Of a stretch of 64,000 nucleotides of DNA, positions 1,471-64,000 are shown piece after piece. Under the pieces are notes generated by a model. That model was not told the origin of the DNA, ran no database searches, and saw only the letters and a list, made by a program, of their open reading frames with translations. A program made the translations under genes and the position numbers. This DNA is from an uncultured Lachnospiraceae bacterium. GTDB taxonomy: Bacteria > Bacillota > Clostridia > Lachnospirales > Lachnospiraceae. Within the stretch, counting starts at the first letter, position 1, and every line of letters begins with the position of its first letter. The stretch is from assembly GCA_964483545.1 (NCBI GenBank), contig CAZACC010000001.1, forward strand, positions 5,883-69,882, read 5' to 3'.

Positions 1471-1522
1471 GGTGTGTTTGAAAATTTGGATGATTGACAG
1501 AAGGGATTGCTGGGGATAATCT

Positions 1523-2167: not shown

Positions 2168-2281
2168 TATTTTGGTAGTGACCACCAACAGCGTTAAATT
2201 TGCCTATCCCTTGTTATTTTTGACACTTAAGTTTGAATATGATATGGTATCAAGTAAAAATAAAGAAGAGGACGTGATTTT

Positions 2282-3196
2282 ATGCCAATTAAGATTCAAG
2301 ATCAGTTACCTGCGTGTGCTACACTGGAGAGCGAGAATATATTTGTCATGACGGAGCGACGCGCCATGCATCAGGATATCAGACCACTGAAGATGCTGAT
2401 TTTGAACCTCATGCCGACTAAAATCGTGACGGAGACACAGCTGCTGCGTAAATTATCAAATACACCACTACAGGTGAATGTGAATCTGCTGCAGACAGCA
2501 AGCTATATTCCACAGCATATTGATTCAAACCATCTGGAGTCTTTTTACACAACTTTCGATCAGATTAAGGATCAAAAATTTGATGGTATGATTATTACTG
2601 GTGCACCACTTGATTATGTGAAGTTCGAGGATGTGAACTACTGGGATGAGCTTTGCACGATCATGGAATGGAGCAAGACCCATGTGCATTCGACCTTCCA
2701 TCTCTGCTGGGGAATGTATGCTGCCTTATACTATTTCTATGGGCTGCAGAGATTTGATATGGATGAGAAGCTTTCAGGCGTTTATGCACATAAGGTGCTT
2801 AAGAAGACGTCTCCACTGTTCCGTGGATTCGATGATGTTTTTTATGCACCGCAGTCCCGTGCTATGGGAATCTCAGAAGAAGAGATAGCAAAGGTCCCCG
2901 AGTTGGAGCTTATGGCAGCCTCGGATGAAGCAGGTGTCACCATTGTGAAGACAACCGATAGTCGACATTTCTTCGTGTCCTGTCATCCAGAATATGATGA
3001 GGATACACTGGCAACCGAATATTTTCGTGATGTAAATAAGGGATTGAATCCTCACGTTCCATACAACTATTTCCCCGATGATGATCCTACCAAGGAACCG
3101 ATTGTTAACTGGCGGTCTGCAGGTCAGCTTTTGTATTCTAATTGGCTGAATTATTATGTTTATCAGACAACACCGTATGATGTTATGGATATATAG
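2282..3196 (+). CDS. metA: homoserine O-acyltransferase (MetA family)
   Basis: The MetA N-terminus is characteristic (MPIKIQDQLPA..ENIFVM..RAMHQDIRPLKMLILNLMPTK), as is the HLCWG active-site context. Length is 304 aa. Confidence 0.9.
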   Translation: MPIKIQDQLPACATLESENIFVMTERRAMHQDIRPLKMLILNLMPTKIVTETQLLRKLSNTPLQVNVNLLQTASYIPQHIDSNHLESFYTTFDQIKDQKFDGMIITGAPLDYVKFEDVNYWDELCTIMEWSKTHVHSTFHLCWGMYAALYYFYGLQRFDMDEKLSGVYAHKVLKKTSPLFRGFDDVFYAPQSRAMGISEEEIAKVPELELMAASDEAGVTIVKTTDSRHFFVSCHPEYDEDTLATEYFRDVNKGLNPHVPYNYFPDDDPTKEPIVNWRSAGQLLYSNWLNYYVYQTTPYDVMDI

Positions 3197-3464
3197 GGTT
3201 TATGCGGATAGACGCTACAGATGAGGATTTGTGAATCTATCGTAAATTAGCGCAGCTTATCATGTTTTGATTAAAAAATGAGACACATCACGTAGTATGA
3301 CATAAAATAGAAGGAATTTCATTAACACTATATGTTTGGCAATATGTGTTGTTATATTGAGTTATTTGTGTTAGTATTTATCGTGTGTATAACACCAATG
3401 ACTGAAAAGTTGCCAAAAATAGATTATAACAGGAAGAATTGAATACAAAACAGAAGGTATTACC

Positions 3465-4491
3465 ATGCTCTTTACCGAACTTTCCTATTTCTTTTTTTAC
3501 CAGTTGTGTTTACTGCATATGGGTTGCTTCCTCATGAATTTCGCTGGGTTTTTCTATTGATTGCCAGCTATTATTTTTATATGAGTTGGAGTATAAAGTA
3601 TGTTTCCATTATACTGTTTATCACTGCCATTTCGTATGGAACTGCTCTTCTAATGTCCCGTTTTTCAAAACAGCATCAAAAAAAGCTCCTTCTGGTCATT
3701 GCTTTAATCATGTGTCTGGGTGTTCTGTTTGTTTTCAAATACATTTACTTCTTCAGTCAGTCTTTAGCGGCTCTGATCAGTCAATTTGTATTGCCTGTTG
3801 CTCTGGTAACACTTAAACTCATTTTGCCTGTTGGCATATCGTTTTATACCTTCCAGATGCTCAGCTATGTAATTGATGTATATCGGGGTGAGATTGAACT
3901 GGAAAAGCATTTCGGAAAATATGCTTTATTTGTATCTTTTTTCCACAGCTGGTGGCAGGCTCCATCGAAAGAAGCAAAAAATCTGCTTCCACAGTTTCGT
4001 CAGGAAAAGTTCTTTCAATATGATGTGGCTTCGTACGGAATGCGTCTGATTTTGTGGGGTGCTTTTAAGAAGATGGTCATTGCAGACAGCCTTGCTTATT
4101 ATGTTGATGCTGTATTCAACAGCCTTGTGACTTTCCAAGGGTGTTCTCTGTTGCTTGCGGTTTTCTTCTTTACAATACAAATCTATTACGATTTTCTGGC
4201 TATTCTGATATTGCCATCAGAAGTGCAAATCTGCTTGGTTTTCAGCTTATGACTAATTTTAAATGTCCCTACTTTTCGACATCAGTCAAGGAGTTCTGGA
4301 TCAGATGGCATATGATCAATGTTTTGATTACTTTTACCGTAAGTGGGTTGTGGCATGTGGCATGGTGCGAATTGGACTTTGCCGTTTGGGGCTTTTACAT
4401 GGTCTTGCAAATGTTTTTAATTCTTTTTCTTAAAGGGTTTTCTAGAAGCTTCAAAGCAGGAAACTTTTTTCTGCCGCAGCCTGTATATTGA
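3465..4491 (+). pseudogene. MBOAT-family O-acyltransferase (AlgI/DltB-like), disrupted
   Basis: MBOAT blocks are spread over three frames: MLFTELSYFFF / LPVVFTAYG.., ILPVGISFYTFQMLSYVIDVYRG, YDF/SGYSDIAI, FWIRWH. Frame changes sit at homopolymers: T-run 3492-3498, about 3941-3944 with A-run 3976-3981, and T-run 4192-4195. The segment between RWH and SGLWH is missing when compared with the intact paralog at 60213. Confidence 0.75.
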
Positions 4492-4751
4492 CTTTCCTAT
4501 TCTGTATGCGGGCAAGGACATTTTTTCGTGAATACATTGCTTTTCAGCAACAGTTAGAATCAAAACTGGATTGTCCTGTTATTTCTGATTTCACAGACTA
4601 TTTTATTGACTATCAGTACTTCTTTGATACTGCATTCCACTTAACTGATGAAGGAACCAGAATCAGAACACAGCTTTTAGCAGATGATCTGAGAAAATAC
4701 ATGGACTCTCACATGAGTGAGCAGCATTTAAGCCTGACACAATCTCATTGA
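4488..4751 (+). pseudogene. 3' remnant of an SGNH/DltD-like MBOAT partner gene
   Basis: Only a C-terminal-like piece is present (YFFDTAFHLTDEGTR, a DxxH-type block as at the C-termini of DltD/SGNH proteins). There is no N-terminal anchor or Ser block, and it abuts the truncated MBOAT. Confidence 0.35.
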
Positions 4752-4767
4752 CCGGGGAGAGAGACGA

Positions 4768-6855
4768 ATGATAGAAAAGTTGTTTTGTAATATAATACGT
4801 TTTCTGATGATGATTGTACTGGGTTATCTGACAATTGTCAGTGTGTGTTCCACCTGCTATATTTCCGAGTATGAACATGTATTTTTTGTAAAGGATCAGG
4901 CGGTATTGAATTGTTTATGGATTATACTTGCGATCACAGCAGCTGTATTGGCTAAGAAGTATGTACATATATCAGATGACATATTACGTAGGATAGAAAT
5001 AGCCTGCTTAATTACGCTGACCTTCATTTTGCTTTATTTTGTGTTTAGCTCTCAACTGAAACCGATTTATGATCAGAATAAAATATTCCAGATAGCCGGC
5101 AGAATGTATGAACATGATTACATTGATTTTGTTCCGAGCGGGTATGCACAGCGATGTGATAATCAGTGGGGAATTCTTCTATTCCTGCTGGGTATATTTA
5201 AGCTGTTTGGTAATCAAAATCTGCTGATTCTGCAGATAATCAATGTGATCTCGATTATTATTGCAATTGTATTCATTCCGAAAATCTGTGACAGGGCAGC
5301 GAATCAAAGAACCGGCAGTCTGATCGGTATCGTGTTATGCTTTTTTATTCCTTTGTGGGGTTATGCTACATTTATATATGGAACGCTGCCGTCCTATGCC
5401 TTAGCCATAACGGCATGTTATTTTCTGATTGTGTATATAGAAGAGCATAAGATCAAGGACGCAGTTCTGATGGGCTTATGCATTGGAGCTGCCATAACCC
5501 TAAAGACGAACTCCGTCATATTTTGGATTGCAATCATGTTATTTCTCTTATTACAGACGATACTGCAGAAGAGACCTCGCATATTGCTTTCCGTGCTGTG
5601 GCTTGTCATTGTGTATTTTGGCAGCGCATTTATTGTGAATCAAAGTATAGCATCTATAACAGAGCTTCCGCATGAGGGGCTTCCCCGTACAGCGCAAATG
5701 GCAATGTCCCTACAGGATAATTCAATGAAGACATCCGGTTGGTATAACGGATATATGGAGAGTGTATATGAAGAGAACGGGTATTTACACAATCAAACAA
5801 ATCAGGCGGCTGTGGAAAATATAAAGGCGTCGTTAGAAGGATTTATTGCGAATCCATCTTATGCAGCAGGCTTTTTTGTGAGAAAGATTGTATCTCAGTG
5901 GAATGAACCGACGTTTGAGAGCTTATTTATTCAGACAAGAAGAGAATCTCTGGTAGAACCTCCCGGTTATCTGGATCTGCTTCTGCATAACAATCAGGGG
6001 AATCCGTTTGTAACCGACATGATGGATGTCATGCAGACCTTGATTTTGTTTGGAGCATTTTTCTTTTTCCTGAATGATAGTAAGAACCGGAATGTAATGA
6101 AATATTTACCCGCAGTCATTATTTTAGGAGGGTTTTTCTTTCACATCATCTGGGAAGCCAATTCACAATACATTATTACTTATTTTATACTGTTGATACC
6201 ATATGCAGTACTCGGTTATCTGAATGGTTCTGATTGTGTCTGCGAAATGATAACGGTTCATAGTGCTAAGAATAGATTTTTTTATGAAATATGTATCTTC
6301 ATTGGACTTGTATTAGTAATTAATGTATTGCCCCAAAATGATTTAACCAGTGTACTGAAGCCTCATTGGAATGATGAGGAGTATGCAGAGTATCGCAGTG
6401 AGTATGAGGAAGCCTTTCGACCCATCTCTTATGGACGATATTTCATTTCTCCTTATGATGCAAATGATGAGATTATGGGTTTGCCAGAAGCGTCAGCAGA
6501 AGAGGGCACGAGTATAGAGTTATATACTCTGGATAGTCAAAGAGACGACAGGGTGCTGATCAGTCCGTGTGAAGGAGGATATCATCTCAGGCGGCAGGAA
6601 TCGCAGCTTGTATTTGATGTGGCGGGCGGAGTTGTTGAGCCGGGAGGTATGCTGCAGCAGTGGAGATATATTGGCGAGGATGGACAGGTGTTTCATTTTG
6701 CAGATGCCGGAGATGATGCATACTTTATTCTGTGCGGGGAACGGTGTGCGGTGACATATGATCAGGGGAGCAGGAAGGTAAAGCTCGAAGAATTTATAGG
6801 TAAAGAGAACCAAATGTGGAGAATCAGAAAGAATAGAGAAAAAACAGATGAATAA
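4768..6855 (+). CDS. polytopic GT-C-like membrane glycosyltransferase with C-terminal ricin-type (beta-trefoil) lectin domain
   Basis: About 480 aa of multi-TM sequence resemble ArnT/PMT_2/YfhO-type proteins. A soluble tail carries QxW repeats (MLQQWRYIG, ENQMWRIRK). A good RBS (GGGGAGAGAG) precedes the start. Confidence 0.5.
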   Translation: MIEKLFCNIIRFLMMIVLGYLTIVSVCSTCYISEYEHVFFVKDQAVLNCLWIILAITAAVLAKKYVHISDDILRRIEIACLITLTFILLYFVFSSQLKPIYDQNKIFQIAGRMYEHDYIDFVPSGYAQRCDNQWGILLFLLGIFKLFGNQNLLILQIINVISIIIAIVFIPKICDRAANQRTGSLIGIVLCFFIPLWGYATFIYGTLPSYALAITACYFLIVYIEEHKIKDAVLMGLCIGAAITLKTNSVIFWIAIMLFLLLQTILQKRPRILLSVLWLVIVYFGSAFIVNQSIASITELPHEGLPRTAQMAMSLQDNSMKTSGWYNGYMESVYEENGYLHNQTNQAAVENIKASLEGFIANPSYAAGFFVRKIVSQWNEPTFESLFIQTRRESLVEPPGYLDLLLHNNQGNPFVTDMMDVMQTLILFGAFFFFLNDSKNRNVMKYLPAVIILGGFFFHIIWEANSQYIITYFILLIPYAVLGYLNGSDCVCEMITVHSAKNRFFYEICIFIGLVLVINVLPQNDLTSVLKPHWNDEEYAEYRSEYEEAFRPISYGRYFISPYDANDEIMGLPEASAEEGTSIELYTLDSQRDDRVLISPCEGGYHLRRQESQLVFDVAGGVVEPGGMLQQWRYIGEDGQVFHFADAGDDAYFILCGERCAVTYDQGSRKVKLEEFIGKENQMWRIRKNREKTDE

Positions 6856-7552
6856 ATTAATGATTGTAATGCCTGCATACAATGAGGAAGAAAATATTGA
6901 GATGGTAGTTAAGGAGTGGTATCCGCTGTTGGAATTAGCTGATGAAGAGTCAAGAATGGTTATTGCAGACAGCGGGAGTAGTGACCGGACTCATGAAATC
7001 TTAGCAGCCTTAATGGAGAGTCATCCACGACTGGAGATCCTGAGTGATACTTTAAAGCAGCATGGTCCGAAATTGATTGCATTGTATCAGTATGCCATTG
7101 ATGGCGGAGCAGACTACATTTTTCAGACGGATTCAGATGGGCAGACCATTCCGGAGGAGTTTGCTGCGTTCTGGGAGCTGAGAGAACAGTATGATGGAGT
7201 ATTTGGATATCGAAGTGTCAGAGGAGACGGACAATCAAGAGCGTTTGTGGAACGGGTTGTATGTTTACTTTTAAGAATGTATTATGGGATAAAGGTTCCT
7301 GATGCAAATGCCCCTTTCCGGCTGATGAAAACAGAGTCTGTGAGAAAATATCTTTCGAGATTCACTGCAGATTATAATTTACCCAACATCATGTTAACTG
7401 CTTATTTCGTATATTATAAGGAAAAGGCAGCTTTCAGATCCATAACATTTCAACCTAGACAGGGAGGCGTTAACTCTATTAACATTCCTAAAATTGTGAA
7501 GATTGGCTGGAAGGCTTTAAAAGACTTTTCTGATTTCAGGAAGGGAATGTAA
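6848..7552 (+). CDS. family 2 glycosyltransferase (polyprenyl-phosphate sugar synthase-like)
   Basis: GT-A signatures are present: MIVMPAYNEEENIEMVV and QTDSDGQ. It overlaps the stop of the upstream GT-C-like gene by 8 nt. Confidence 0.8.
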   Translation: MNKLMIVMPAYNEEENIEMVVKEWYPLLELADEESRMVIADSGSSDRTHEILAALMESHPRLEILSDTLKQHGPKLIALYQYAIDGGADYIFQTDSDGQTIPEEFAAFWELREQYDGVFGYRSVRGDGQSRAFVERVVCLLLRMYYGIKVPDANAPFRLMKTESVRKYLSRFTADYNLPNIMLTAYFVYYKEKAAFRSITFQPRQGGVNSINIPKIVKIGWKALKDFSDFRKGM

Positions 7553-7635
7553 TGGGTGATAAAACATATCAGACTGGGTGGCTTTTGCTTTGCTTTAGAA
7601 TCTAAATATTGAAAGAATTACTTATATTAAAATAA

Positions 7636-7667
7636 TATCATAATAGTATCATAAGATGTATCATAAG
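7636..7667. repeat. three phased TATCATAA(G) direct repeats upstream of the UPF0371 gene
   Basis: Copies start at 7636, 7647 and 7659, a spacing of 11 and 12 nt. They lie about 95-125 nt upstream of the ATG at 7760. Confidence 0.4.
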
Positions 7668-7759
7668 ACAAAGTAACCATGGAACATTCAAAATATATAT
7701 GTTAAAATCAAATAATGGTTTTAACGACATTGAAATGATACATTGGAGGGGAATGCACA

Positions 7760-9235
7760 ATGAAATTGGGTTTTGATAACGAGAAATATGTAAAGATGCA
7801 GTCTGAGCATATCAAGGAGCGAATCAGCAAGTTTGGAGATAAGCTGTATCTGGAGTTTGGAGGTAAGTTGTTCGATGATTATCACGCATCACGTGTGCTG
7901 CCAGGTTTTCAGCCAGATTCCAAGATGAAGATGCTGCTGCAGCTGGCAGATGATGCAGAAATCGTTATTGTAATCAGTGCGACGGATATTGAAAAGAATA
8001 AAGTGCGAGGTGATCTGGGGATTACTTATGATGTAGATGTCCTTCGTCTGATGGATGAATTTGCAGAACGTGGGTTATATGTTGGCAGTGTTGTAATCAC
8101 ACACTATGCAGGACAAGCAGCAGCAGATCAGTTCAAAAAGAAACTGAGAAAAATGAAGAAGAAGGTATATCTGCACTATGCAATCGAGGGATATCCTTCT
8201 AATATACCTCTGATTGTCAGCGATGAGGGATACGGAAAAAATGAGTATATCGAAACGACCAGACCATTGGTAGTCGTAACGGCTCCAGGACCAGGCAGCG
8301 GAAAGATGGCGACATGTCTGTCACAATTATACCATGATAATAAACGCGGTATCAAAGCTGGTTATGCAAAGTATGAGACATTTCCGATTTGGAACATCCC
8401 ACTGAAGCATCCGATCAATCTGGCATATGAAGCAGCAACAGCAGATTTAAATGATGTCAATATGATTGACCCGTTTCATCTGGAGGCTTATGAAGAAACA
8501 ACTGTTAATTATAACAGAGATATAGAAATATTTCCGGTACTGAACGCAATATTTGATGGTATCTATGGGGAGAACCCATACAAATCACCAACTGACATGG
8601 GTGTCAATATGGCAGGCAACTGTATCATAGATGACGAGATCTGCTGTCAGGCATCTAAGATGGAAATCATCAGGCGATACTATGCGACTTTGGAGAAGCT
8701 GGTCAATGAAGATGCCGATGAAAATGAGATTTACAAGATTGAGCTTTTGATGAATCAGGCAAAAATCACAACAGATGACCGTAGGGTGACTGTTGCGGCA
8801 AAGGAAAGAGCAGCAAAGCTGGGCGTTCCGACAGCTGCGATAGAACTTCAGGATGGTCACATCATAACATCCAAGACGACTGATTTACTGGGAGCTTCTG
8901 CAGCGTTACTTTTAAATGCATTAAAATATCTGGGCAATGTCGAGCATGATACCCACCTAATACCGGCATCAGCCATAGAACCGATCCAGGAACTTAAAGT
9001 AAAGTATCTGGGAGGAAAAAATCCACGTCTGCATACAGATGAGGTATTGGTGGCACTGAGTATGTCTGGTCTGACAGACCAAAAGGCAAAGACGGCTCTG
9101 GAGCAGCTGCCGAAACTGCGAGGATGTCAGGTACACACCTCTGTTATGCTATCTGAGGTAGATATCAAGACATTTAAGAGACTCGGTGTAGATCTGACTA
9201 GTGAGCCAATTAAAAAACAAAAAAAACAATACTAA
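7760..9235 (+). CDS. UPF0371 (DUF1846) family protein
   Basis: Strong family signature: KLYLEFGGKLFDDYHASRVLPGF, VVTAPGPGSGKMATCLSQLYHD, GYAKYETFPIWNIPLKHPINLAYEAATADLNDVNMIDPFH. Confidence 0.85.
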   Translation: MKLGFDNEKYVKMQSEHIKERISKFGDKLYLEFGGKLFDDYHASRVLPGFQPDSKMKMLLQLADDAEIVIVISATDIEKNKVRGDLGITYDVDVLRLMDEFAERGLYVGSVVITHYAGQAAADQFKKKLRKMKKKVYLHYAIEGYPSNIPLIVSDEGYGKNEYIETTRPLVVVTAPGPGSGKMATCLSQLYHDNKRGIKAGYAKYETFPIWNIPLKHPINLAYEAATADLNDVNMIDPFHLEAYEETTVNYNRDIEIFPVLNAIFDGIYGENPYKSPTDMGVNMAGNCIIDDEICCQASKMEIIRRYYATLEKLVNEDADENEIYKIELLMNQAKITTDDRRVTVAAKERAAKLGVPTAAIELQDGHIITSKTTDLLGASAALLLNALKYLGNVEHDTHLIPASAIEPIQELKVKYLGGKNPRLHTDEVLVALSMSGLTDQKAKTALEQLPKLRGCQVHTSVMLSEVDIKTFKRLGVDLTSEPIKKQKKQY

Positions 9236-9256
9236 AAAATCAAAAGGTCGGAGCAT

Positions 9257-10327
9257 ATGTCAGTTACGATTTTTACAATGACTCATAAGAAATTTGATGA
9301 ACCAAAGGATAGGATCTATATTCCGTTACATGTCGGCAGAGCAAAGGCGATGGATTTCGGGTATGCGGGAGATGATACTGGAGACCAGATATCAGAGATG
9401 AATTGCTATTATGGGGAACTGACAGGAGTATATTGGATTTGGAAAAACTTTAAAACAGCAGGTGCTGTTGGGGTATGCCACTACAGACGTTATCTTGTTG
9501 ATGCTCATAATGTGATATTGACAGAGAAGGAATATGAGACGCTGCTGCAGCACTATGATATTATCACGACAAAGGTACTGCGTCTGAATTGTGCATATTA
9601 TGATGGTTATGCAGCTAACCATCACATCAAAGATCTGATAGAAACGGGAAATGTGATCAGGGAGAAGTATCCAGATTACTATGATGTTTATGAACGGATT
9701 GTACATTCTAATAAAACATTATTCGGAAATATCATGGTAATCTCTAAGAATTTGTTTGATGAGTATGCGGCATGGTTGTTTGATATTTTTTTTGAGGTAC
9801 AGAAGAGAATTGATATCGATTCTTATGATGATTATCATAAGAGAGTATTTGGGTTTATATCTGAGATTCTGCTGTTGGTGTGGATCACGCAGAGAGAGCT
9901 GAGCTTCTGTGAATGTAAAGTGGGTATGCTGGGTGAGAAAAAGGAAACAATTGATATGAAGCATCAGCTCGCAGCTTATTTTAATAATAAGGACATCGCA
10001 GGAGCCAAGGCATATTTTCTATCATCTCTTGAGAAGCGTCCGGATGTTCTGATGGAGGCTTCGGATATCTATGGAGAACTGAAGTTATCCATGCAGGTTA
10101 TTAGTACCTGTGATTTGGAGAAAAAGCAATATGGAAGCTGTGTACTGGACAGGACAACAGATTTTAGAGAATTGATGCGGTATTTTTCGCGTTTGAATGA
10201 AATAGCGGTGCGTGAACGGGATGGAGAGACCACCGAGGAGGACAGATGTTATTTAAGAGATGAGAATATCTCACAGATTGCTCTGCAGATTGCAGACCAG
10301 ATTGCACAGGCACTCAGTAATTCTTAG
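9257..10327 (+). CDS. DUF4422 domain protein (putative glycosyltransferase) with C-terminal helical extension
   Basis: IFTMTHKKFDEP..IYIPLHVGRA..YGELTGVYWIWKN..GVCHYRRYL matches the DUF4422 pattern. Confidence 0.75.
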   Translation: MSVTIFTMTHKKFDEPKDRIYIPLHVGRAKAMDFGYAGDDTGDQISEMNCYYGELTGVYWIWKNFKTAGAVGVCHYRRYLVDAHNVILTEKEYETLLQHYDIITTKVLRLNCAYYDGYAANHHIKDLIETGNVIREKYPDYYDVYERIVHSNKTLFGNIMVISKNLFDEYAAWLFDIFFEVQKRIDIDSYDDYHKRVFGFISEILLLVWITQRELSFCECKVGMLGEKKETIDMKHQLAAYFNNKDIAGAKAYFLSSLEKRPDVLMEASDIYGELKLSMQVISTCDLEKKQYGSCVLDRTTDFRELMRYFSRLNEIAVRERDGETTEEDRCYLRDENISQIALQIADQIAQALSNS

Positions 10328-55740: not shown

Positions 55741-56265
55741 TCACGCCTTTGTTGGCTCTGGGTATTCTACTCCAAAGGTTTCAATGGTCATAGATTTAAC
55801 TTTCTGTTCTTGAACGGGTTTGTCAGAATAGTCTACCTGTACGGACGCGATTTTATCTACGATATCCAATCCCTCTGTAACCTTGCCAAATGCAGCATAG
55901 GCTCCATCCAGATGTGGAGAGGTCTTGTGCATCAAGAAAAACTGTGATCCTGCTGAATCAGGATGTGCACTTCTTGCCATAGATAATACTCCGGGATCAT
56001 GTGCGAGATCGTTTTGAAAGCCATTTTGTGAGAACTCGCCTGGAATGTTGTATCCTGGACCGTCATATCCTGTGCCTGAGGGACAACCTCCTTGAATCAT
56101 GAAGCCATTGATGACTCTGTGAAAAATGAGACCATCATAGAATCCTTTTGAAACAAGACTGATAAAATTATTGACTGTGTTGGGAGCGATATCAGGATAA
56201 AGCTCCGCTTTCATCATATCTCCGTTTTCCATTGTAATCGTAACGATTGGGTTTTGTGAAATCAT
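55741..56265 (-). CDS. peptidylprolyl isomerase, cyclophilin type
   Basis: Start trimmed to MISQNPIV after GGAGGAA. FHRVINGFMIQGG and SMARSAHPDSAGSQFF. Confidence 0.9.
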   Translation of the reverse strand: MISQNPIVTITMENGDMMKAELYPDIAPNTVNNFISLVSKGFYDGLIFHRVINGFMIQGGCPSGTGYDGPGYNIPGEFSQNGFQNDLAHDPGVLSMARSAHPDSAGSQFFLMHKTSPHLDGAYAAFGKVTEGLDIVDKIASVQVDYSDKPVQEQKVKSMTIETFGVEYPEPTKA

Positions 56266-56439
56266 TGTAATTCCTCCATATAATTGATTTAAAATAAAAA
56301 GTGCTTTGTTTATTGTAACGAAATGTGGTAAGATAGTAAAGAAAAATTCCTCCGATTTAGGGATAAATGAAGGAAATTTTATATAATGAATGTAAATGTA
56401 TAAGTTGAGCCAAAGAGCTGGATACAGAAAGAGGCATTT

Positions 56440-57003
56440 ATGGGACATATGATATTTCAACTGCCGACAATTCATAAGGAGAATTATTTTACTACAGAGG
56501 TGATTGTTTTTGCAATTTCTGTGCTTGTACTAATTATCGGAATTCTTCTATGTCTATGGGGATATAAGTATTTTCAAACATTAGCTGTTATTATACTGGG
56601 ATGCCTATCAGGCTATGTAGGAATCAAATTAACAGATCATCTGACCAATAGTCCTATTATTAAGATGTTTATCTTTACAATTTTTACATTTTTAGGATGT
56701 TGTCTCTTTTATTTTCTATCTATTCTGATTGATGGCTTTCTGAAGATGATTCATTTGAAGAAGGGAATTGCTGGAAAGATGTATATATTGTCAAGTTTAT
56801 TAGGGGCCGCACTGATTGCTTTCATAGTATACCGTATGGTATACGACGGCTGGATAATTTGTGTGATTATTTTTGTTCTCTTTGCAGTTATGGGGATGAT
56901 TTATCAGAAGATTAAAAAGGCATCAAGACCTGAGTTCCACTGTTATGAAGATATCTTCAAGATGAAACCGTTACCAAAAGAGGAGAATAAACAGAATGCT
57001 TGA
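56440..57003 (+). CDS. polytopic membrane protein of unknown function (first gene of the VTC/CotH operon)
   Basis: About 5 hydrophobic helices and an AAGAGG RBS. It overlaps the VTC gene by 8 nt. Confidence 0.5.
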   Translation: MGHMIFQLPTIHKENYFTTEVIVFAISVLVLIIGILLCLWGYKYFQTLAVIILGCLSGYVGIKLTDHLTNSPIIKMFIFTIFTFLGCCLFYFLSILIDGFLKMIHLKKGIAGKMYILSSLLGAALIAFIVYRMVYDGWIICVIIFVLFAVMGMIYQKIKKASRPEFHCYEDIFKMKPLPKEENKQNA

Positions 57004-57691
57004 CGTATATAGAAAAGAGCTGAAATATCTGATTGATCCGATGGAAATGGTGAGAATGAAATCTGTTCTAGACAAGATTATGAGCAGCGATAGTCATAAC
57101 GGAGTGAATGGATACCGTGTTCGCTCATTATATTTTGATACATTGTTGGATTCGGATTTTGAGGAAAAACTAGCAGGTTATGATTCCAGACAGAAAATCA
57201 GAATTCGTGTTTATGATGGAAACAGTCAGGTATATAAGCTGGAATTGAAGGCAAAAGAAAAAGATATGCAGAGAAAAATATCGCTTCTCTTATCAAGGGA
57301 GGAGACAGAATCCATGATGCGGGCAGACTATTCCTTTCTGCTGGATCGACCTGAAAAACCTGCATCGTCTCTTTATATAAAACTGATTATGCACAGCTAT
57401 CGACCCAAATGTATTGTTGAATATGATCGATATGCATATATAAGAAATACAAACAACATTAGGATCACATTTGACATGAACCTGAGGGCGACAGAAAGCA
57501 ATCTGAACCTGCTGGACGAGAATCTGATTTTATATCCAGTGTGCAGACCAGGTGAGATTACAATGGAAGTAAAGTATGACAAGTTTCTATTTTCTTTTAT
57601 CAAAAATGCAATCAAACAGATTGATCGAACACAAATTTCTAACAGTAAATACTGCAAGGCCAGAAAAATTTCCAAGAAGGGAAGAATTTAA
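56996..57691 (+). CDS. VTC-domain protein (triphosphate-tunnel / polyphosphate-polymerase-like)
   Basis: Alternating charged beta-strand motifs of the tunnel fold are present: RKELKYLI, YRVRSLYFDT, KIRIRVY, YKLELKAKE, ITMEVKYD. The size (231 aa) is typical of bacterial VTC-domain proteins. Confidence 0.65.
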   Translation: MLDVYRKELKYLIDPMEMVRMKSVLDKIMSSDSHNGVNGYRVRSLYFDTLLDSDFEEKLAGYDSRQKIRIRVYDGNSQVYKLELKAKEKDMQRKISLLLSREETESMMRADYSFLLDRPEKPASSLYIKLIMHSYRPKCIVEYDRYAYIRNTNNIRITFDMNLRATESNLNLLDENLILYPVCRPGEITMEVKYDKFLFSFIKNAIKQIDRTQISNSKYCKARKISKKGRI

Positions 57692-57694
57692 CTT

Positions 57695-58381
57695 ATGAAA
57701 GAATACTTGTATGAAGGACTATTGAACAGTTCGGGTTCTTTAACACTTAGGGATGTCATTATCAATTTTGCTGCGGCATGTATTATCAGCCTCCTAATCT
57801 TTATCTCCTATCGATTGACACATTCGGGAGTGGTATACAGCAAGAAATTTAATGTATCGCTGGTTATGCTTACCTTGATTACAACACTTGTAATGAACGT
57901 CATTGGGAATAACATAGCACTTTCTCTTGGTATGGTAGGAGCACTTTCCATTGTTAGATTTCGAACGGCAATTAAGGATTCCAGAGATACAGCCTATATT
58001 TTCTGGGCAATTGCTGTCGGTATCTGCTGTGGAGTATCAGATTATTTAGTTGCTGGTATTGGAACGTTTGTTATTTTTTTAGTTCTAGTCCTGTTCGGAG
58101 TGGTAAAGGATAATGAACGAATCATGATTATTATAAAAACGGATTCAGAAATGATTAAGATGGTTGATGTAAGTGTGACCTCTCTTTTTGATGGTAAGGC
58201 AGTGTTGCGTGTTCAAAACAACTCGGTAGAATCCGGTGTAGCAGAGATGATATATGAAGCATCTGATAGCATTCTCATAAAAACGGAAAAAAAGAATGGC
58301 TCTGTTATTAGAAAATTGTCAGAAATTGACGGGGTGTATACTGTCAGCATCGTACAGCAGGATGATGAAATCAGCCAGTAG
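57695..58381 (+). CDS. DUF4956-like membrane protein
   Basis: About 4 TM helices with the conserved-looking GALSIVRFRTAIKDSRDTAYIFWAIAVG block, plus a C-terminal soluble domain of about 90 aa. Confidence 0.55.
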   Translation: MKEYLYEGLLNSSGSLTLRDVIINFAAACIISLLIFISYRLTHSGVVYSKKFNVSLVMLTLITTLVMNVIGNNIALSLGMVGALSIVRFRTAIKDSRDTAYIFWAIAVGICCGVSDYLVAGIGTFVIFLVLVLFGVVKDNERIMIIIKTDSEMIKMVDVSVTSLFDGKAVLRVQNNSVESGVAEMIYEASDSILIKTEKKNGSVIRKLSEIDGVYTVSIVQQDDEISQ

Positions 58382-58392
58382 GGGGATAATTC

Positions 58393-60009
58393 ATGTTTTA
58401 TAACAAACGAGTGGTCTGGATCCTGACTGTCGGAATGATAGGAATACTGTCTCTGCTTGTGCTGAGCCTGATTCGGGTGGAATTTGATCATATAGAAAAT
58501 GGGAATGATGGCAGCTATCATAGACTAGCAAAAGATACATCTGCAGAAGATCCGCTAAAGTATATACAAGAGGACTTTTTAGTTACGGAGGGCTTTCATA
58601 CGAATCTTCCTATTGTCATACTGTCCATTGATGGAGAAATCCCAGATTATAAGAACTTTGAGAATAGTCAGGAAGTTGTTTTTGATGGTGTAGACCCTTA
58701 TATAACAGGAAATATGGCAGTGATTGACCGAGGAAAAAATGACAATTTCCTGACGGATACACCTTCTTATTTTGGACAGATTAAGCTTAAGAAGAGGGGC
58801 CACACTTCGTATTCTTATGATAAACTACAGTATCTTGTGAAAACAGTAAAAGCAGATGGCACAGATGACAGTCCAAATCTGTTAGGTATGGGTGAGGGTG
58901 ACAGTTGGATCTTAAACGGAAGCATGGCAGATAAGAGTATGATTCGTAATTATCTTCCTTACCGTATTGCATCTGAGATTGGTGGCAATCGGATGGCTCC
59001 GGATAGTCAGTTTTGTGAGGTATTGCTGAAAAAGGATCAAGGTTATGAGTATCAAGGTGTTTTTCTTTTGATGGAGACGGTATCAAGAGGGAGTTCGAGA
59101 GTCAATATTGATCAATACAGAGAGAAAAATATTTATTCCAGCTATATAGTGCGTCGTGACAGGTTTACTAATTTTGATGTGATGTTGGATACTTACGGTC
59201 GTCTCAATGGCTTTTCTGAGCAGTGGATTGGTATGAAATATCCGTCAGCAGCAAAATTGTCCGATCAGACGAAACAGTTTATTGAAAAGGATTTTTCTAA
59301 GACGGAGCAGATTCTGTATGCTGAAGACGAAGCAACTTTTAAGATTTATGATAAATATATCAATATTAATTCATTTGTTGATTATTTCTTAATCAATGAG
59401 TATTTTGGCAACTACGATGCAGGGGAACATTCAACTTATATGTATAAGAATTCTGGGGATCTTTTGAACATCGGTCCAGTGTGGGATTTTGACCAGGCAA
59501 TGAATAATTACTTTTTGGAAGAGATGAATGCAGAGACGCTTGCATTTCAGACAAAGCCTCTCTTTATTCAGTTAATGAATGATAAACGATTTATAGAAGC
59601 GTTGAAAGATCGGTACAGTAAACTCCGCAACAAGGCATTATCAGAGGAGCATGTTTTTTCCGTTATAGATGAGACAATTGAATACTTGAAATCTGCAAGG
59701 GTGAGAGAGTGGTATCGTTGGGCGGCAGATTATGAAGAAGGTTCCTTTGCTAATAACCATAATTATTACCTACAGGATTACGTTGTAGATAATGTAACTA
59801 TTAGTCGATTTAATGATAACTACAATCAGGAAATCTATAATATCAAGAATTATTTACATCAGCACGGACAGGTTATCCAGACCGAGTTGTCTAAGATGAG
59901 TAAGTCGGCAGAGTTTAATTCTTCGCTGAATAATGAGAATGAATTGTTGCTTTTGATTATCATGGTTCTGTTTTTGATTCCGTCATTTTTTATTAACAGA
60001 GAGGGTTAG
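58393..60009 (+). CDS. CotH-family kinase-like protein anchored by N- and C-terminal TM helices
   Basis: CotH-like blocks: LNGSMADKSMIRNYLPYRIASEIG, YQGVFLLMETV, INEYFGNYDAGEHSTYMYK, GPVWDFDQAM. Hydrophobic helices sit at residues about 8-27 and at the extreme C-terminus. Confidence 0.7.
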   Translation: MFYNKRVVWILTVGMIGILSLLVLSLIRVEFDHIENGNDGSYHRLAKDTSAEDPLKYIQEDFLVTEGFHTNLPIVILSIDGEIPDYKNFENSQEVVFDGVDPYITGNMAVIDRGKNDNFLTDTPSYFGQIKLKKRGHTSYSYDKLQYLVKTVKADGTDDSPNLLGMGEGDSWILNGSMADKSMIRNYLPYRIASEIGGNRMAPDSQFCEVLLKKDQGYEYQGVFLLMETVSRGSSRVNIDQYREKNIYSSYIVRRDRFTNFDVMLDTYGRLNGFSEQWIGMKYPSAAKLSDQTKQFIEKDFSKTEQILYAEDEATFKIYDKYININSFVDYFLINEYFGNYDAGEHSTYMYKNSGDLLNIGPVWDFDQAMNNYFLEEMNAETLAFQTKPLFIQLMNDKRFIEALKDRYSKLRNKALSEEHVFSVIDETIEYLKSARVREWYRWAADYEEGSFANNHNYYLQDYVVDNVTISRFNDNYNQEIYNIKNYLHQHGQVIQTELSKMSKSAEFNSSLNNENELLLLIIMVLFLIPSFFINREG

Positions 60010-60017
60010 GGATACAT

Positions 60018-60209
60018 ATGTGTTACAGCTGTAATTTGTTGCTTGCTTCCATAGTGGATTCTGAACAGGTAAAACCAAGAAGATTCTTTTTGATGGATTT
60101 TCAGGATCCGTATATCGTCTGGACATTTCGTATTGCAGCAATGCTGATTTTAGTAATTGCTTTGATCATATATGTAGTTAAAAGAAAGAATCAAAAGAAC
60201 GGAGAATGA
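60018..60209 (+). CDS. small single-TM protein
   Basis: 63-aa ORF with one helix (FRIAAMLILVIALIIYVV) and a basic tail. It fits tightly between CotH and MBOAT, with gaps of 8 and 3 nt. Confidence 0.35.
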   Translation: MCYSCNLLLASIVDSEQVKPRRFFLMDFQDPYIVWTFRIAAMLILVIALIIYVVKRKNQKNGE

Positions 60210-60212
60210 TCA

Positions 60213-61646
60213 ATGCTATTTTCCAGTATTGTATTTCTGTTTTATTTTCTGCCGATTGTATTTATACTTTATTATTTGCTAGCATTTTCCAGAATGCTTC
60301 AGAATATTCTGTTGCTCATAGCGAGCTTGATTTTCTATGCTTGGGGTGAGCCGGTTTATGTTTTTTTGATGCTAGCTTCGATTATCTTCAACTCGATCAT
60401 GGGGTATTTAGTAGAGAGACCGAAAAAAGCATCTGGAAAAAAAATAGCTTTGGTAGTTGATATCGTAGTAAATCTATTAGTGCTATTTGTATTTAAGTAT
60501 CTTGGATTTGTACTGAAATCAATTGGATTGGCTGCGAATCTTGATTTCTCAGAGTTTCAATTGTCATTACCGATTGGTATTTCTTTTTTTACATTTCAGG
60601 CACTATCCTATGTGATTGATGTATACCGTGGCACCACAAAAGCTGAGAATCCGTTCTATGTAGGACTATATATAGCATTTTTTCCGCAGTTGATTGCCGG
60701 ACCGATTGTGCAGTACAATACGGTTGCTGATCAGATCCGGAATAGAAAATCCAGTTTTGATAAAATCTCAGTCGGGCTAAGCCGGTTTACAGTAGGATTG
60801 GGGAAGAAAGTGCTCTTATCAAACTGTTTTGCAGCAATTGCAGATCATGTATTTGAGTGGTCGGCAATAGGAACAGACAGACTTCAGGTTCCAGTGATGC
60901 TGGCGTGGTTGGGAAGTATCTCATATACACTGCAGATTTATTTTGATTTCTCTGCTTATTCAGATATGGCAATCGGGTTGGGACTTTGCTTTGGTTTTAA
61001 ATTTGGAGAGAACTTTAATTATCCGTACATCGCAGATTCTGTTACGAACTTTTGGAAGCGGTGGCATATTTCATTGACTGACTGGTTTCATGATTATGTA
61101 TATTTTCCACTGGGTGGGAGTCGGGTTAATAATCAGGACTACATGGTGCGCAACATATTTATTGTATGGCTGCTGACTGGTATCTGGCACGGTGCCAACT
61201 GGACATTTATTTTCTGGGGATTGATGTATTTTGTATTTCAACTGGCTGAACGTTTTTTTGAGTATCCTAAGAAATTGAAGAGTAAGTTTGCAAAGCACTT
61301 ATATACATTGATGGTGGTCAATGCTGCGTGGGTCATATTCAGGGCTGATGATCTCTACCAGGCAGGAAGGTTTTTTATGAACATGCTTGGTGTCAACCGA
61401 AATGGGTTTTACAGTGAGACAGCAATGATGCTAATTCGTGAGAATTGGGTATTTCTTCTTTTGGGAGTTATTTTCTCCATGCCGGTTGCAAGAAATATGA
61501 ATGAGATCCTTTATAAGGATCCTAAATCCTGGATTAATAAATTGTATACGATTGTATATCCAATCGGATTGATGTTGATATTGGTCTTGTGTGTTTGTTA
61601 TTTGGCGAGCGGAACATATAATCCGTTTATTTATTTCAACTTCTAG
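60213..61646 (+). CDS. MBOAT family O-acyltransferase (AlgI/PatA/WssH-like)
   Basis: LPIGISFFTFQALSYVIDVYRG, FFPQLIAGPIVQY, YFDFSAYSDMAIG, FWKRWHISLTDWFHDYVYFPLGGSR, TGIWHGA. Confidence 0.9.
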   Translation: MLFSSIVFLFYFLPIVFILYYLLAFSRMLQNILLLIASLIFYAWGEPVYVFLMLASIIFNSIMGYLVERPKKASGKKIALVVDIVVNLLVLFVFKYLGFVLKSIGLAANLDFSEFQLSLPIGISFFTFQALSYVIDVYRGTTKAENPFYVGLYIAFFPQLIAGPIVQYNTVADQIRNRKSSFDKISVGLSRFTVGLGKKVLLSNCFAAIADHVFEWSAIGTDRLQVPVMLAWLGSISYTLQIYFDFSAYSDMAIGLGLCFGFKFGENFNYPYIADSVTNFWKRWHISLTDWFHDYVYFPLGGSRVNNQDYMVRNIFIVWLLTGIWHGANWTFIFWGLMYFVFQLAERFFEYPKKLKSKFAKHLYTLMVVNAAWVIFRADDLYQAGRFFMNMLGVNRNGFYSETAMMLIRENWVFLLLGVIFSMPVARNMNEILYKDPKSWINKLYTIVYPIGLMLILVLCVCYLASGTYNPFIYFNF

Positions 61647-61665
61647 GTGTGAGGCGACTGATACT

Positions 61666-62871
61666 ATGAAAAGTTATTTGCTGAAAAAAAGAATATTTGC
61701 TATTATATTTATGCTGACGGTCTTCGGATACTCTGCATTGAATATACAGCACACATACGAACCATTAATGACTTTACTGAAATCTTTGAAAACCATAGAT
61801 GTTGCAGAGATTGAGAACGAGATTTCAAGCAACTTGTACGAGAGAATTAAATTCATTGAAACATATGCATATATTCAGGTTCTGTTGGATAAGAGAGAAT
61901 GTAATAACTTTACTATGATCAGGGATGAGCAGAATTATCTGCACTATGCTTCTTTTTTTCGAGAGGGGGACACGCAGCTGTTTGAGTATGCAATGCGTGT
62001 AAAACGGCTGCAGGATTATGTCGAAGCAAACGGGACTAAGGTACTTTTCGTAGTAGCTCCGTCTAAATACTCTTCCAAGTATTCCGAGCTACGAGCTGGA
62101 ACACCCATCAATAATCCAGAGAGTACGGTAACAGAGCTTCTGTTTTATTTGAATCGTTTGGGAATAGAAACATTGAATCTAGGAGAGACAATGCCAAATG
62201 AGGATCTCTCTTATAAGGAGACTTTTTTTAAATCAGATCATCACTGGACAATCCCGGCAGCGTTCTATGCCACACAGAAGGTGACGGAACAGCTGCATGA
62301 AAGATTTGGATTGGATCTGGATCCGGAGCATTACTATATGAATCCGGACAGTTATCAACAGGTAACATATTATGGGGGAATGCTTGGCTCCATGGGAAGA
62401 AAAACCGGCGCTTGCTTTTCGGGGGTGGATGATTTTACGGCTTTTTGGCCGACTTTTGAAGGGGACTTTCATCGAGAGTCGATGACAAATGACGGTGCCA
62501 TCGTTAAGTCAAAGGGTTCCTTTGTGAAAGCATTTATGAATTTAGATGCACTGACGGATAAAGAGGATCTGTATTCTGGATCACAGTATTCTTTGTACCT
62601 GAACGAACTTCGTATTTATGAAAAAATCACAAATGATGAAAAACCGGACGGATGCAAAATGTTTATGATTAGAGACTCCTATTTTTCGCCGGTTATTGCC
62701 TTTATGATGCCAATGTGTGGTGAAATTGATGCCATTTGGTCCTTAGAGGAGTCTGATTATGTGGACATTGAGACTTATGTCAGAAACAATCAATTTGATT
62801 ATATCATTATTGAAGTTTATCCATATAACATCAATAGTGAAGCATTTAATTATTTCAAAGAAAAGGAGTGA
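61666..62871 (+). CDS. DHHW family protein (AlgJ/AlgX-like O-acetyltransferase partner)
   Basis: Start trimmed to MKSYLLKKRIFAIIFML (N-terminal anchor). The eponymous FFKSDHHWT motif is present. Confidence 0.7.
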   Translation: MKSYLLKKRIFAIIFMLTVFGYSALNIQHTYEPLMTLLKSLKTIDVAEIENEISSNLYERIKFIETYAYIQVLLDKRECNNFTMIRDEQNYLHYASFFREGDTQLFEYAMRVKRLQDYVEANGTKVLFVVAPSKYSSKYSELRAGTPINNPESTVTELLFYLNRLGIETLNLGETMPNEDLSYKETFFKSDHHWTIPAAFYATQKVTEQLHERFGLDLDPEHYYMNPDSYQQVTYYGGMLGSMGRKTGACFSGVDDFTAFWPTFEGDFHRESMTNDGAIVKSKGSFVKAFMNLDALTDKEDLYSGSQYSLYLNELRIYEKITNDEKPDGCKMFMIRDSYFSPVIAFMMPMCGEIDAIWSLEESDYVDIETYVRNNQFDYIIIEVYPYNINSEAFNYFKEKE

Positions 62872-62879
62872 GAAGAGAG

Positions 62880-64000
62880 ATGGCTAAATTCAATACAAGA
62901 CTACATAATGCAAAAGGAAAAGCATGGTTTCTGATAAATATGTTTTTTACGATTGTATATTTAATCTGGAGAATCTTCTTTACTATACCTTTAGAATATG
63001 GATGGGTGTCCATTGTTGCGGGTATTGCATTACTGATCGTAGAGGTGTTGGGAATGGTGGAAGCATTTATTCATTATGCCAATATGTATAACGTTGAGAA
63101 CTATCCTCTGCCAGTGGTTCCGATTGAACGTTACCCAGATGTCGATGTTTTTATTGCAACCTACAGCGAAGAAACAAGGCTTCTTTATAAAACGATTAAT
63201 GGATGCCGATACATGGATTATCCGGATAAGAGCAAGGTACATATTTATCTGTGTGATGACAACAGACGCCCTGAAATGAAAGAACTTGCAGAGAAGATGG
63301 GTATTAATTATTTGGACAGACCCGATAATGAAGGAGCGAAGGCAGGCAATTTGAATCATGCAATGGCACATAGTCAATCGCCGCTTGTTGTAACGCTTGA
63401 TGCAGATATGATTCCAAAACGGGATTTTCTGATGAAGACCGTTCCGTATTTTGTGGACAATGAAATCAAAAATGAGGGAAGAAAGGATGAGGATAAGATT
63501 AAAATTGGCTTTGTTCAGACGCCTCAGTGCTTCTATAATCCGGACTTGTTTCAGTTCAATCTGTTCTCTGAAGGACGTATTCCGAACGAACAGGATTATT
63601 TTTATAAGGACATACAGGTTGCAAGAACGCGTAGCAACAGTGTAATCTATGGTGGATCCAACACAGTTCTGCGGAGAGAGGCAATTAACGATGTTGGTGG
63701 ATTCTATACCGATGCTATAACAGAGGATTTTGCTACTGGAATCTTGATGGAAAAGAAGGGCTATGTCTCTTTGGGGATTGGGGAACCTTTGGCATCTGGG
63801 ATGTCACCGACTGATTTGCAGGGCTTGATCCAGCAGCGTACCCGTTGGGCAAGAGGTGTGATTGCTACCGGAAGAAAAATGCACATTTATACATCTTCGG
63901 ACTTGTCCTTTTCACAAAAGATGAATTACTGGGCATCCATATGGTATTGGTATGCACCGCTTAAGAGATTAATTTATATAATGTCACCAATTCTGTTTGC
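62880..64000 (+). CDS. bcsA: cellulose synthase-like catalytic subunit (BcsA-type GT2), 3' end outside the window
   Basis: My own translation from the ATG at 62880; the ORF is absent from the track because no stop occurs in the window. DVFIATYSEE, LCDDNRRPE, KAGNLNHA, TLDADMIP, VQTPQCFYNPD, ITEDFATG, QQRTRWARG. Confidence 0.85.
   Translation, partial: MAKFNTRLHNAKGKAWFLINMFFTIVYLIWRIFFTIPLEYGWVSIVAGIALLIVEVLGMVEAFIHYANMYNVENYPLPVVPIERYPDVDVFIATYSEETRLLYKTINGCRYMDYPDKSKVHIYLCDDNRRPEMKELAEKMGINYLDRPDNEGAKAGNLNHAMAHSQSPLVVTLDADMIPKRDFLMKTVPYFVDNEIKNEGRKDEDKIKIGFVQTPQCFYNPDLFQFNLFSEGRIPNEQDYFYKDIQVARTRSNSVIYGGSNTVLRREAINDVGGFYTDAITEDFATGILMEKKGYVSLGIGEPLASGMSPTDLQGLIQQRTRWARGVIATGRKMHIYTSSDLSFSQKMNYWASIWYWYAPLKRLIYIMSPILF

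Follow-up and report, generated by a model that had tools for sequence, protein, structure and literature searches.

Why should a cellulose-type synthase and its acetylation enzymes share a row of genes with a polyphosphate-polymerase-like protein and a kinase-like protein of the CotH family? The question is raised by the end of the DNA stretch examined here, called the window in the following. The window comprises 64,000 nucleotides (nt) of a contig of an uncultured Lachnospiraceae bacterium of the gut or rumen (CAZACC010000001.1 of assembly GCA_964483545.1; G000:C1:5883-69882 in our numbering), and the contig runs a further 9.6 kb past its end. The answer that we favor, and rate as rather probable, is that these genes form an operon which makes a secreted O-acetylated cellulose-type beta-glucan, and that this operon represents a branch of the ccs family in which CcsB has been replaced by a VTC-DUF4956-CotH trio. 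The machine for an acetylated beta-glucan appears well supported by family membership and motifs, and the functional coupling of the trio to the synthase by a linkage that is conserved, resistant to rearrangement and horizontally co-transferred. The acetyl-cellulose part of ccs (Scott 2020) and the presence of the trio beside pel loci are already known.

The row starts with a 187-amino-acid (aa) membrane protein (TM187) and continues with the VTC, DUF4956 and CotH genes, a 63-aa microprotein, the MBOAT and DHHW genes, the synthase and, beyond the window end, a GH5 glucanase. The coordinates and the common direction of these genes (all on the plus strand) were borne out by the listing of open reading frames (ORFs) and by translation, including the starts at 60213, 61666 and 62880 which an earlier reading of the letters (the original prediction) had given to MBOAT, DHHW and synthase. 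From TM187 to the synthase, the junctions in 5′ to 3′ order are an 8-nt overlap followed by gaps of 3, 11, 8, 3, 19 and 8 nt; the gaps after CotH had been put at 3-19 nt, in agreement with the 8 (to the 63-aa ORF), 3, 19 and 8 nt measured. The ribosome-binding sites of the operon genes sit inside the preceding genes. The absence of a terminator-like hairpin between 56440 and the window end, claimed in the same prediction, also stood, as the terminator scan of the region gave 5 weak sites against 5.5 expected from shuffles and none above chance. The stop codon of the GH5 gene is abutted by a convergent small membrane-protein ORF, and on this ground the operon is taken to end at GH5. TM187 through GH5 would then compose one nine-gene operon with a single transcript.

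The synthase is a processive GT2 enzyme of the BcsA/CcsA type, whose first 373 aa lie in the window (62880..64000; TIGR03030 CelA, E=1.4e-88). The gene runs on to window-equivalent 65210 (G000:C1:68762-71092), and the extension past 64000 which the original prediction had proposed, with a truncated synthase in mind, gave a complete protein of 776 aa. The description as a clear BcsA-like synthase with QTPQ, TED and QQRTRW proved correct; these motifs are present, and the full-length protein also carries DDN, DAD and the gating-loop motif FKVTNK. In phmmer comparisons, it matched the BcsA of Escherichia coli (7LBY, E=1.6e-67 over residues 19-555) and that of Cereibacter (4HG6, E=7e-60). The PilZ domain expected beyond the window end is there and intact (PF07238, residues 519-598), with the RKSER and DVSETG motifs that bind cyclic di-GMP (c-di-GMP) retained, so that polymerization and export would probably be switched on by this nucleotide. 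The BcsB partner considered possible for the same region was not encountered: neither BcsB nor CcsB follows, the next gene being the GH5 glucanase, and no protein of the operon matches the BcsB family in Pfam or NCBIfam. This glucanase (window-equivalent 65191-66306, plus strand; PF00150, E=4e-53) has an N-terminal membrane anchor, and its gene overlaps the synthase end by 20 nt. A homologue search with the synthase returned >3300 relatives, all named generically "glycosyltransferase," which gave no placement relative to the CcsA of Clostridioides difficile or the RiGT2 of Romboutsia.

The two genes upstream of the synthase encode a putative O-acetylation pair. The first is an MBOAT O-acyltransferase of the CcsH type with 477 aa (60213..61646, plus strand; PF03062, E=1.9e-27; DltB-like, E=1.7e-40), whose translation terminates in NPFIYFNF and thus contains the acyl-shuttle motif FxYxxF. 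PatA auto-acetylates the tyrosine of this motif and then hands the acetyl group to its SGNH partner; the respective hexapeptide of Neisseria gonorrhoeae PatA is FIYANF, and the mechanism was explicitly extended to CcsHI by its authors (10.1101/2024.09.17.613324). The second is the DHHW protein, an AlgX-like partner O-acetyltransferase of SGNH and CcsI type with 401 aa (61666..62871, plus strand; AlgX SGNH-like PF16822, E=1e-12; DHHW PF14286, E=2.6e-7). It has one N-terminal transmembrane (TM) segment at residues 10-28, and its DHHW and RDSYF motifs are kept across 29 orthologues. Longer GTG starts at 61591 and 62868 were rejected for the DHHW and synthase genes, as ribosome-binding sites precede the ATG starts at 61666 and 62880, which also agree with the orthologues. 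An O-acetylated beta-glucan had been proposed as the product before, and the set of MBOAT, DHHW and BcsA-type synthase, with FIYFNF at the MBOAT end, fits the published CcsH/CcsI/CcsA model (PMC7710045). The pairs PatA/PatB, WssH/WssI and AlgI/AlgJ/AlgX combine an MBOAT that has the C-terminal FxYxxF tyrosine with a membrane-anchored SGNH-like transferase acting outside the membrane; the present pair shares the MBOAT motif and has a putative transferase of this kind. Unlike in those systems, the acceptor here is presumed to be the beta-glucan of CcsA, and there is no accessory protein of the AlgF/WssF type.

The trio lies upstream of this pair. Its first member is a soluble VTC-domain protein of 231 aa (56996..57691, plus strand; PF09359, E=1.1e-30), a triphosphate-tunnel enzyme like the polyphosphate polymerase domain of yeast Vtc4, with no TM segment and no match to the SPX domain in the Pfam scan. 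Single-sequence PDB searches with VTC and CotH gave nothing useful and profiles were required. In detail, a VTC profile of 25 orthologues matched the Vtc4 catalytic domain 3G3Q (E=2.7e-7), and the invariant K10, R69/R71 and E83/K85 were aligned to RQTTKY, RLRWY and ERK of Vtc4, respectively. These residues are assigned the catalytic roles described for Vtc4 (Hothorn et al. 2009).

The second member is a DUF4956 membrane protein of 228 aa (57695..58381, plus strand; PF16316, E=1.6e-14, and a weak MgtC match), in which four TM helices are followed by an ACT-like domain of the MgtC type at the C-terminus. In its structure model (predicted local distance difference test, pLDDT, 81.5), the C-terminal domain resembles that of MgtC (2LQJ, E=4e-3). 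The most conserved part is an invariant basic stretch, SIVRFRT..KD.RD, between TM2 and TM3, which would face the cytoplasm.

The third member is the CotH-family kinase-like protein of 538 aa (58393..60009, plus strand; PF08757, E=4.2e-45). Its model (pLDDT 86.6) matched Bacillus cereus CotH 5JDA in Foldseek (E=1e-11, TM-score 0.72). D342 and D367 do not vary among 28 orthologues (36-62% identity), conservation of D365 reaches at least 90%, and the spacing of 23 between D342 and D365 is that of the catalytic pair D228/D251 of Bacillus subtilis. TM segments at both the N- and the C-terminus, together with a basic tail, are found in 27 of the 28 ccs-linked CotH proteins, a topology which is the same as that of CcsB, and the CotH domain between the two anchors is predicted to lie outside the membrane. 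The C-terminal anchor is missing from two unlinked CotH proteins, namely the second CotH of the same genome and the extra CotH of locus L013. Family scans of the operon proteins showed no CotB/CotG-like gene near CotH, and the setting is an exopolysaccharide operon.

The linkage of the VTC and CotH genes to the synthase genes, already noticed in the original prediction, is real and conserved in 61 loci, three gene orders and several bacterial families. Of 301 sampled genomes of the order, 11 have a related synthase and 136 have CotH-domain genes; the whole block of trio, acetylation pair and synthase is found in three of the 11, that is, the window genome, Butyrivibrio hungatei XBD2006 (G227) and G064. 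A wider comparison covered 91 loci, in which the best 80 CcsA relatives of a species-representative genome scan, all of at least 50% identity, were pooled with the earlier loci. VTC, DUF4956 and CotH occur with MBOAT and DHHW in 61 of these, a CcsB homologue lies between CcsA and MBOAT in 14, and no locus has both. Of the other 16, 10 are cut short where their contigs end and 6 have divergent synthases and lack both trio and CcsB, so the trio architecture accounts for 61 of the 75 classifiable loci.

The CcsA tree shows the CcsB-type clade (approximate likelihood-ratio test, aLRT, 96) and the trio-type clade (aLRT 97) as sister clades. The trio clade includes Lachnospiraceae, Oscillospiraceae, Clostridiaceae, Filifactoraceae, Anaerovoracaceae and one Enterococcus. 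The linkage is kept in the 61 loci at CotH identities of 36-65% and through three gene orders. For instance, in the variant order TM187-CcsA-VTC-DUF4956-CotH-MBOAT-DHHW-MBL-GH5 (MBL, a metallo-beta-lactamase-fold gene), the trio is inserted between the synthase and the acetyltransferase genes. By transfer, the intact block has crossed family and class boundaries and entered Clostridiaceae, Filifactoraceae, Anaerovoracaceae, Oscillospiraceae and Enterococcus. Since they are co-inherited and co-transferred with the synthase, the trio, the microprotein and TM187 are considered parts of the synthase machine.

Several single loci of this set deserve mention by themselves. Candidatus Enterococcus willemsii CU12B (L070, 291-11370) carries a GGDEF gene, VTC, DUF4956, CotH, MBOAT, DHHW, MBL, CcsA and GH5, and nests among Oscillospiraceae in the CcsA tree, which indicates horizontal transfer of a complete operon with its own cyclase. 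Loci L020 and L021, labeled "uncultured Bacteroides sp.," nest deep in Lachnospiraceae with 65% CcsA identity to the window and are probably binning errors rather than Bacteroidota carriers. In G179, a 1078-aa protein (L006:7687-10923) joins an N-terminal GH5-like domain to a synthase of the CcsA type; the 16.7 kb covered there contain neither MBOAT and DHHW nor a trio or CcsB, and the branch of the protein is a long one inside the trio clade. In a CcsB-type locus of G252 (L007:8743-11000), the synthase is broken by several stop codons into frames of 480 aa and 258 aa and is probably a pseudogene.

The closest known system is the clostridial ccsZABHI, with MBOAT, DHHW, PilZ-bearing CcsA and GH5, for which O-acetylated cellulose was proposed as the product (Scott et al. 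2020, PMC7710045). The window operon shares with this system of C. difficile and other Clostridia the BcsA-like CcsA with GT2 and PilZ, the CcsH/CcsI pair, the membrane-anchored GH5 and the lack of outer-membrane parts, and the published Z-A-B-H-I layout is seen exactly in the sister clade of the synthase tree. On the contrary, the window locus and all 61 trio loci are without CcsB, which is extracellular and bracketed by two terminal TM helices, and the order here is H-I-A-Z. The window operon also goes beyond ccsZABHI by five extra genes (TM187, VTC, DUF4956, CotH and the microprotein), and the ccsZABHI paper mentions neither CotH nor polyphosphate (PMC7710045). With the BcsA-BcsB cellulose synthase, the operon shares the catalytic and channel core of BcsA but does not encode the BcsB subunit. 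We found nothing relevant in the literature on CotH together with a cellulose synthase.

The three families of the trio are also known from another polymer. In Gram-positive bacteria, cotH, a polyphosphate polymerase gene and DUF4956 (also DUF4832) are contiguous with pelDEADAFG loci (Whitfield et al. 2020, 10.1101/768473). In Streptococcus intermedius, the trio corresponds to SIR_1592-1594, and deletion of the CotH or the DUF4956 homologue shifts the Pel level in opposite directions and halves aggregation (PMC12345266). The same paper, of 2025, failed to find the three-gene synteny outside Pel loci (PMC12345266); the ccs-linked trio loci contradict this. The Pel accessory module thus has the same three families beside a synthase-dependent exopolysaccharide operon, with CotH predicted outside and a DUF4956 of MgtC-like TM region plus ACT-like domain. 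Unlike the Pel module, the window operon has a BcsA-type beta-glucan synthase, no DUF4832 match, and a CotH whose C-terminus carries a membrane anchor and not a secreted FN3 tail. A further relative is NELoc-2 of Clostridium perfringens (Lepp et al. 2010, PMC2879425), where a VTC-domain gene, a membrane protein of ~225 aa and CotH adjoin a processive GT2 that bears the annotation "chitin synthase." Judged by size and position, the 225-aa proteins would be DUF4956. NELoc-2 differs from the window operon in its synthase type, in having a HEAT-repeat protein and in lacking an MBOAT/DHHW pair.

Compared with the eukaryotic and sporulation relatives, the setting is different. The yeast VTC complex shares the catalytic residues of the tunnel domain, but it has an SPX domain and a fused DUF202 channel; the VTC protein here lacks both, and no likeness to the VTC channel was detectable in the fold of DUF4956. 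The constant pairing of the VTC protein with a membrane protein suggests synthesis at the membrane. The spore-coat CotH phosphorylates CotB/CotG in the mother cell, whereas the CotH described here belongs to an exopolysaccharide operon and has its domain predicted outside the cytoplasm.

Under the favored explanation, CcsA would polymerize and export the glucan, with c-di-GMP as the switch. By analogy with PatA/PatB, MBOAT would load acetate from acetyl-CoA onto the tyrosine of FIYFNF, the acetate would pass to the DHHW/SGNH-like protein outside the membrane, and this protein would acetylate the glucan. GH5 would trim or release chains. At the inner face of the membrane, the soluble VTC protein might make polyphosphate, or carry out a related tunnel reaction, docked on the MgtC-like DUF4956, which in turn may receive or conduct the phosphoanhydride polymer. 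The kinase domain of the two-anchor CotH may sit outside, where CcsB or BcsB sits in other systems. In the least certain step, CotH would phosphorylate either the nascent polymer or some part of the machine. Such a phosphoryl-type modification of the polymer is offered as a hypothesis, which fits the intact catalytic residues and the predicted outside position of CotH. In its most specific form, namely that CotH replaced CcsB and uses polyphosphate exported by VTC-DUF4956 to phosphorylate the emerging acetyl-glucan, it is a speculative proposal with a small chance of being right. If true, a Gram-positive cell could run kinase reactions on its outside with no need for external ATP, and its matrix polymer would resemble phospho-acetyl-cellulose.

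A number of points weigh against parts of this explanation. As for the product, GH5 matches GH5 endoglucanases and 1,3-1,4-glucanases at about 1e-68 and C. difficile CcsZ (6UJE) at only 5e-18; by sequence, it is nearer to broad-specificity GH5 endoglucanases and 1,3-1,4-glucanases than to CcsZ. Moreover, mixed-linkage glucan is the product of the related clostridial synthase RiGT2 of Romboutsia, which carries a QRDRW motif. Instead of cellulose, the polymer could be a (1,3;1,4)-beta-glucan of mixed linkage, and for these two reasons "beta-glucan" is a safe name for the product, while cellulose is a probable one. As for the linkage, the split between trio and CcsB is essentially one event of the tree and the co-occurrence counts are not independent, and the single nine-gene transcript is read from spacing and synteny only. 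As for the chemistry, the CotH enzymes characterized to date are ATP-dependent Ser/Thr protein kinases, and neither glycan phosphorylation nor a polyphosphate donor has a precedent in the family. In the literature, we found no bacterial VTC-domain protein shown to make polyphosphate. The idea of DUF4956 as a VTC-type channel was dropped for want of structural support, as the fold search of its model gave only the MgtC C-domain and ACT-like folds. Finally, deletion of the VTC homologue of S. intermedius had no reported phenotype and the trio is dispensable for polymer synthesis there (PMC12345266); the silent mutant speaks in particular against a phosphoryl-type modification.

The alternative that survives best takes CotH as mainly structural, that is, as an anchored extracytoplasmic partner which guides the nascent chain like BcsB/CcsB, with kinase chemistry and VTC-DUF4956 being secondary or regulatory. 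The strict exclusion with CcsB (61 vs. 14 loci, with no locus having both), the CcsB-like topology of two anchors with a basic C-terminal tail, the restriction of this anchor to ccs-linked CotH proteins and the fact that the operon encodes no other large extracytoplasmic protein are all consistent with it. A pure scaffold, however, would not need the invariant D342/D367 and the conserved D365 of the 28 orthologues; VTC and DUF4956 always travel with CotH; and the trio also accompanies unrelated synthases (Pel and the GT2 of NELoc-2) that have other partner proteins. We regard this alternative as unlikely.

Somewhat less likely still is that the trio regulates the synthase through protein phosphorylation by CotH, with the microprotein, CcsI or TM187 as possible targets, and that VTC-DUF4956 senses or buffers the phosphate or energy status via the ACT-like domain. 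The activity assumed for CotH would be the one known from all characterized members, regulation of Pel by protein phosphorylation was proposed by Whitfield et al. (10.1101/768473), and the opposite shifts of the Pel level upon deletion of DUF4956 and CotH in S. intermedius look regulatory (PMC12345266). A ligand-binding domain of ACT-like type on DUF4956 and a conserved microprotein, which adjoins CotH and exposes a Tyr/Phe motif, point in the same direction. On the other hand, ATP is scarce on the outer side of the membrane, where the kinase domain is predicted to lie, the synthase already has its own c-di-GMP switch, and the microprotein is absent from about one third of the loci.

That the two halves are functionally unrelated neighbors, the trio having a general envelope or polyphosphate role and hitch-hiking beside exopolysaccharide genes, is very improbable: a second CotH-VTC-DUF4956 set whose short contig has no synthase, a VTC-DUF4956 pair that is under a two-component system and has a carbohydrate-binding protein as its partner, and the far wider spread of CotH-domain genes than of the synthase are in its favor, but they stand against an adjacency kept in 61 loci despite the divergence of CotH, three gene orders and transfers between families and classes, against the variant order with the trio between synthase and acetyltransferase genes, and against the CcsB exclusion together with the C-terminal anchor specific to linked CotH.

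Three further genes accompany the block. TM187 (56440..57003, plus strand), with five predicted TM segments and no Pfam family, has homologues that head the operon in about 30 Lachnospiraceae-type loci and lie directly upstream of CcsA in the variant order. In locus L079 (3886-7236), a 1116-aa frame consists of a signal peptide with an extracellular domain, a TM187-like domain (192-351) and CcsA (355-1107). This in-frame fusion points to a physical association of TM187 with CcsA, and TM187 is a probable partner of the synthase. The frame comes from a single contig of a metagenome-assembled genome (MAG) of a yak-rumen Lachnospiraceae, and may be a true fusion or an assembly error. The microprotein (60018..60209, plus strand; 63 aa) is a single-pass protein whose TM segment at 33-51 is preceded by a conserved [HD]-[YF]-F-L motif and followed by a basic tail. 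An ORF of this type fills the gap between CotH and MBOAT in about 40 of the 61 trio loci, and the possibility that the 63-aa ORF is spurious was rejected because of this conservation among related loci. Lastly, about 22 trio loci have a TM-anchored gene of the metallo-beta-lactamase fold (ComEC-like, HxDxDH), inserted either between DHHW and CcsA or ahead of GH5 (e.g., L046:9021-9884, L070:7086-7934 and L026:18020-18925). It is found in trio-type and never in CcsB-type loci, and is absent from the window operon.

The window genome includes three VTC-DUF4956 pairs in total, each with a different third protein. The second set is placed on a 5.2-kb contig (L093, G000:C131:1-5207; 343-4556, minus strand) and consists of a 512-aa CotH that lacks the C-terminal anchor, together with VTC and DUF4956, after which comes a 419-aa protein without a Pfam family; an impB/DinB-type gene adjoins and there is no synthase on the contig. 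The third pair (L094, G000:C33:4000-18000; 4694-9980) comes after an OmpR-type response regulator and a histidine kinase, and is followed by a 525-aa carbohydrate-binding protein of the Cthe_2159 family (PF14262, E=6e-72). The company of this Cthe_2159-family protein is an indication that a VTC-DUF4956 core pairs with different outside proteins. All three third proteins probably act outside the membrane, as both CotH proteins have N-terminal hydrophobic segments and the third protein has a carbohydrate-binding domain. PPK1 and PPX, which serve bulk polyphosphate, are also encoded in the genome, so the VTC-DUF4956 pairs are additional to ordinary polyphosphate metabolism. This speaks for a dedicated role of VTC-DUF4956 and thereby for the favored explanation.

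Concerning expression, a candidate promoter of the sigma-70 type, GTGAAA-17-TATAAT (56256..56284, plus strand; L002 139-167; 10 of 12 matches), is located in the 175-nt gap between a divergent cyclophilin gene and the first operon gene. Overall, the region has no more promoter-like sites than its shuffled versions, and the site is a candidate only. When the complete operon was scanned against Rfam at E<=1, neither a riboswitch (in particular none for c-di-GMP) nor any other RNA came up. Control of the operon is presumably exerted through PilZ, and the genome has about 20 GGDEF genes. The cyclophilin ORF was listed with 244 aa (window 55741-56475, minus strand), but its 70-residue N-terminal extension is implausible and would overlap the first gene of the operon; the real start is probably an ATG near 56265 (MISQNPIV...). 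Past the convergent ORF at the other end, a separate plus-strand glycan cluster (L002:10799-17353, window-equivalent 66916-73470) contains two GT2 genes, an epimerase/dehydratase, a GHMP kinase, a nucleotidyltransferase-HAD fusion, a SIS isomerase and a transaldolase-family protein, and resembles a heptose-type nucleotide-sugar pathway.

Very little work has been done on the cellulose-type biofilm polymers that Gram-positive bacteria of gut and rumen make, and the sole published model, ccsZABHI, includes CcsB. Most close relatives of the synthase (61/75) use the trio architecture instead. The exclusion of CcsB, together with the anchor specific to linked CotH proteins, gives a concrete structural hypothesis, and the linkage of the trio to two chemically different polymers leaves fewer possible mechanisms. 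Cultured carriers, that is, Butyrivibrio hungatei XBD2006, Oribacterium sp. WCC10, Clostridium pascui DSM 10365 and Anaerophilus nitritogenes MJB2, make the question testable. Since Pel-dependent aggregation of a pathogenic Streptococcus is modulated by the trio, which also belongs to a disease-associated locus of C. perfringens, the mechanism of the trio matters beyond the organism of the window.

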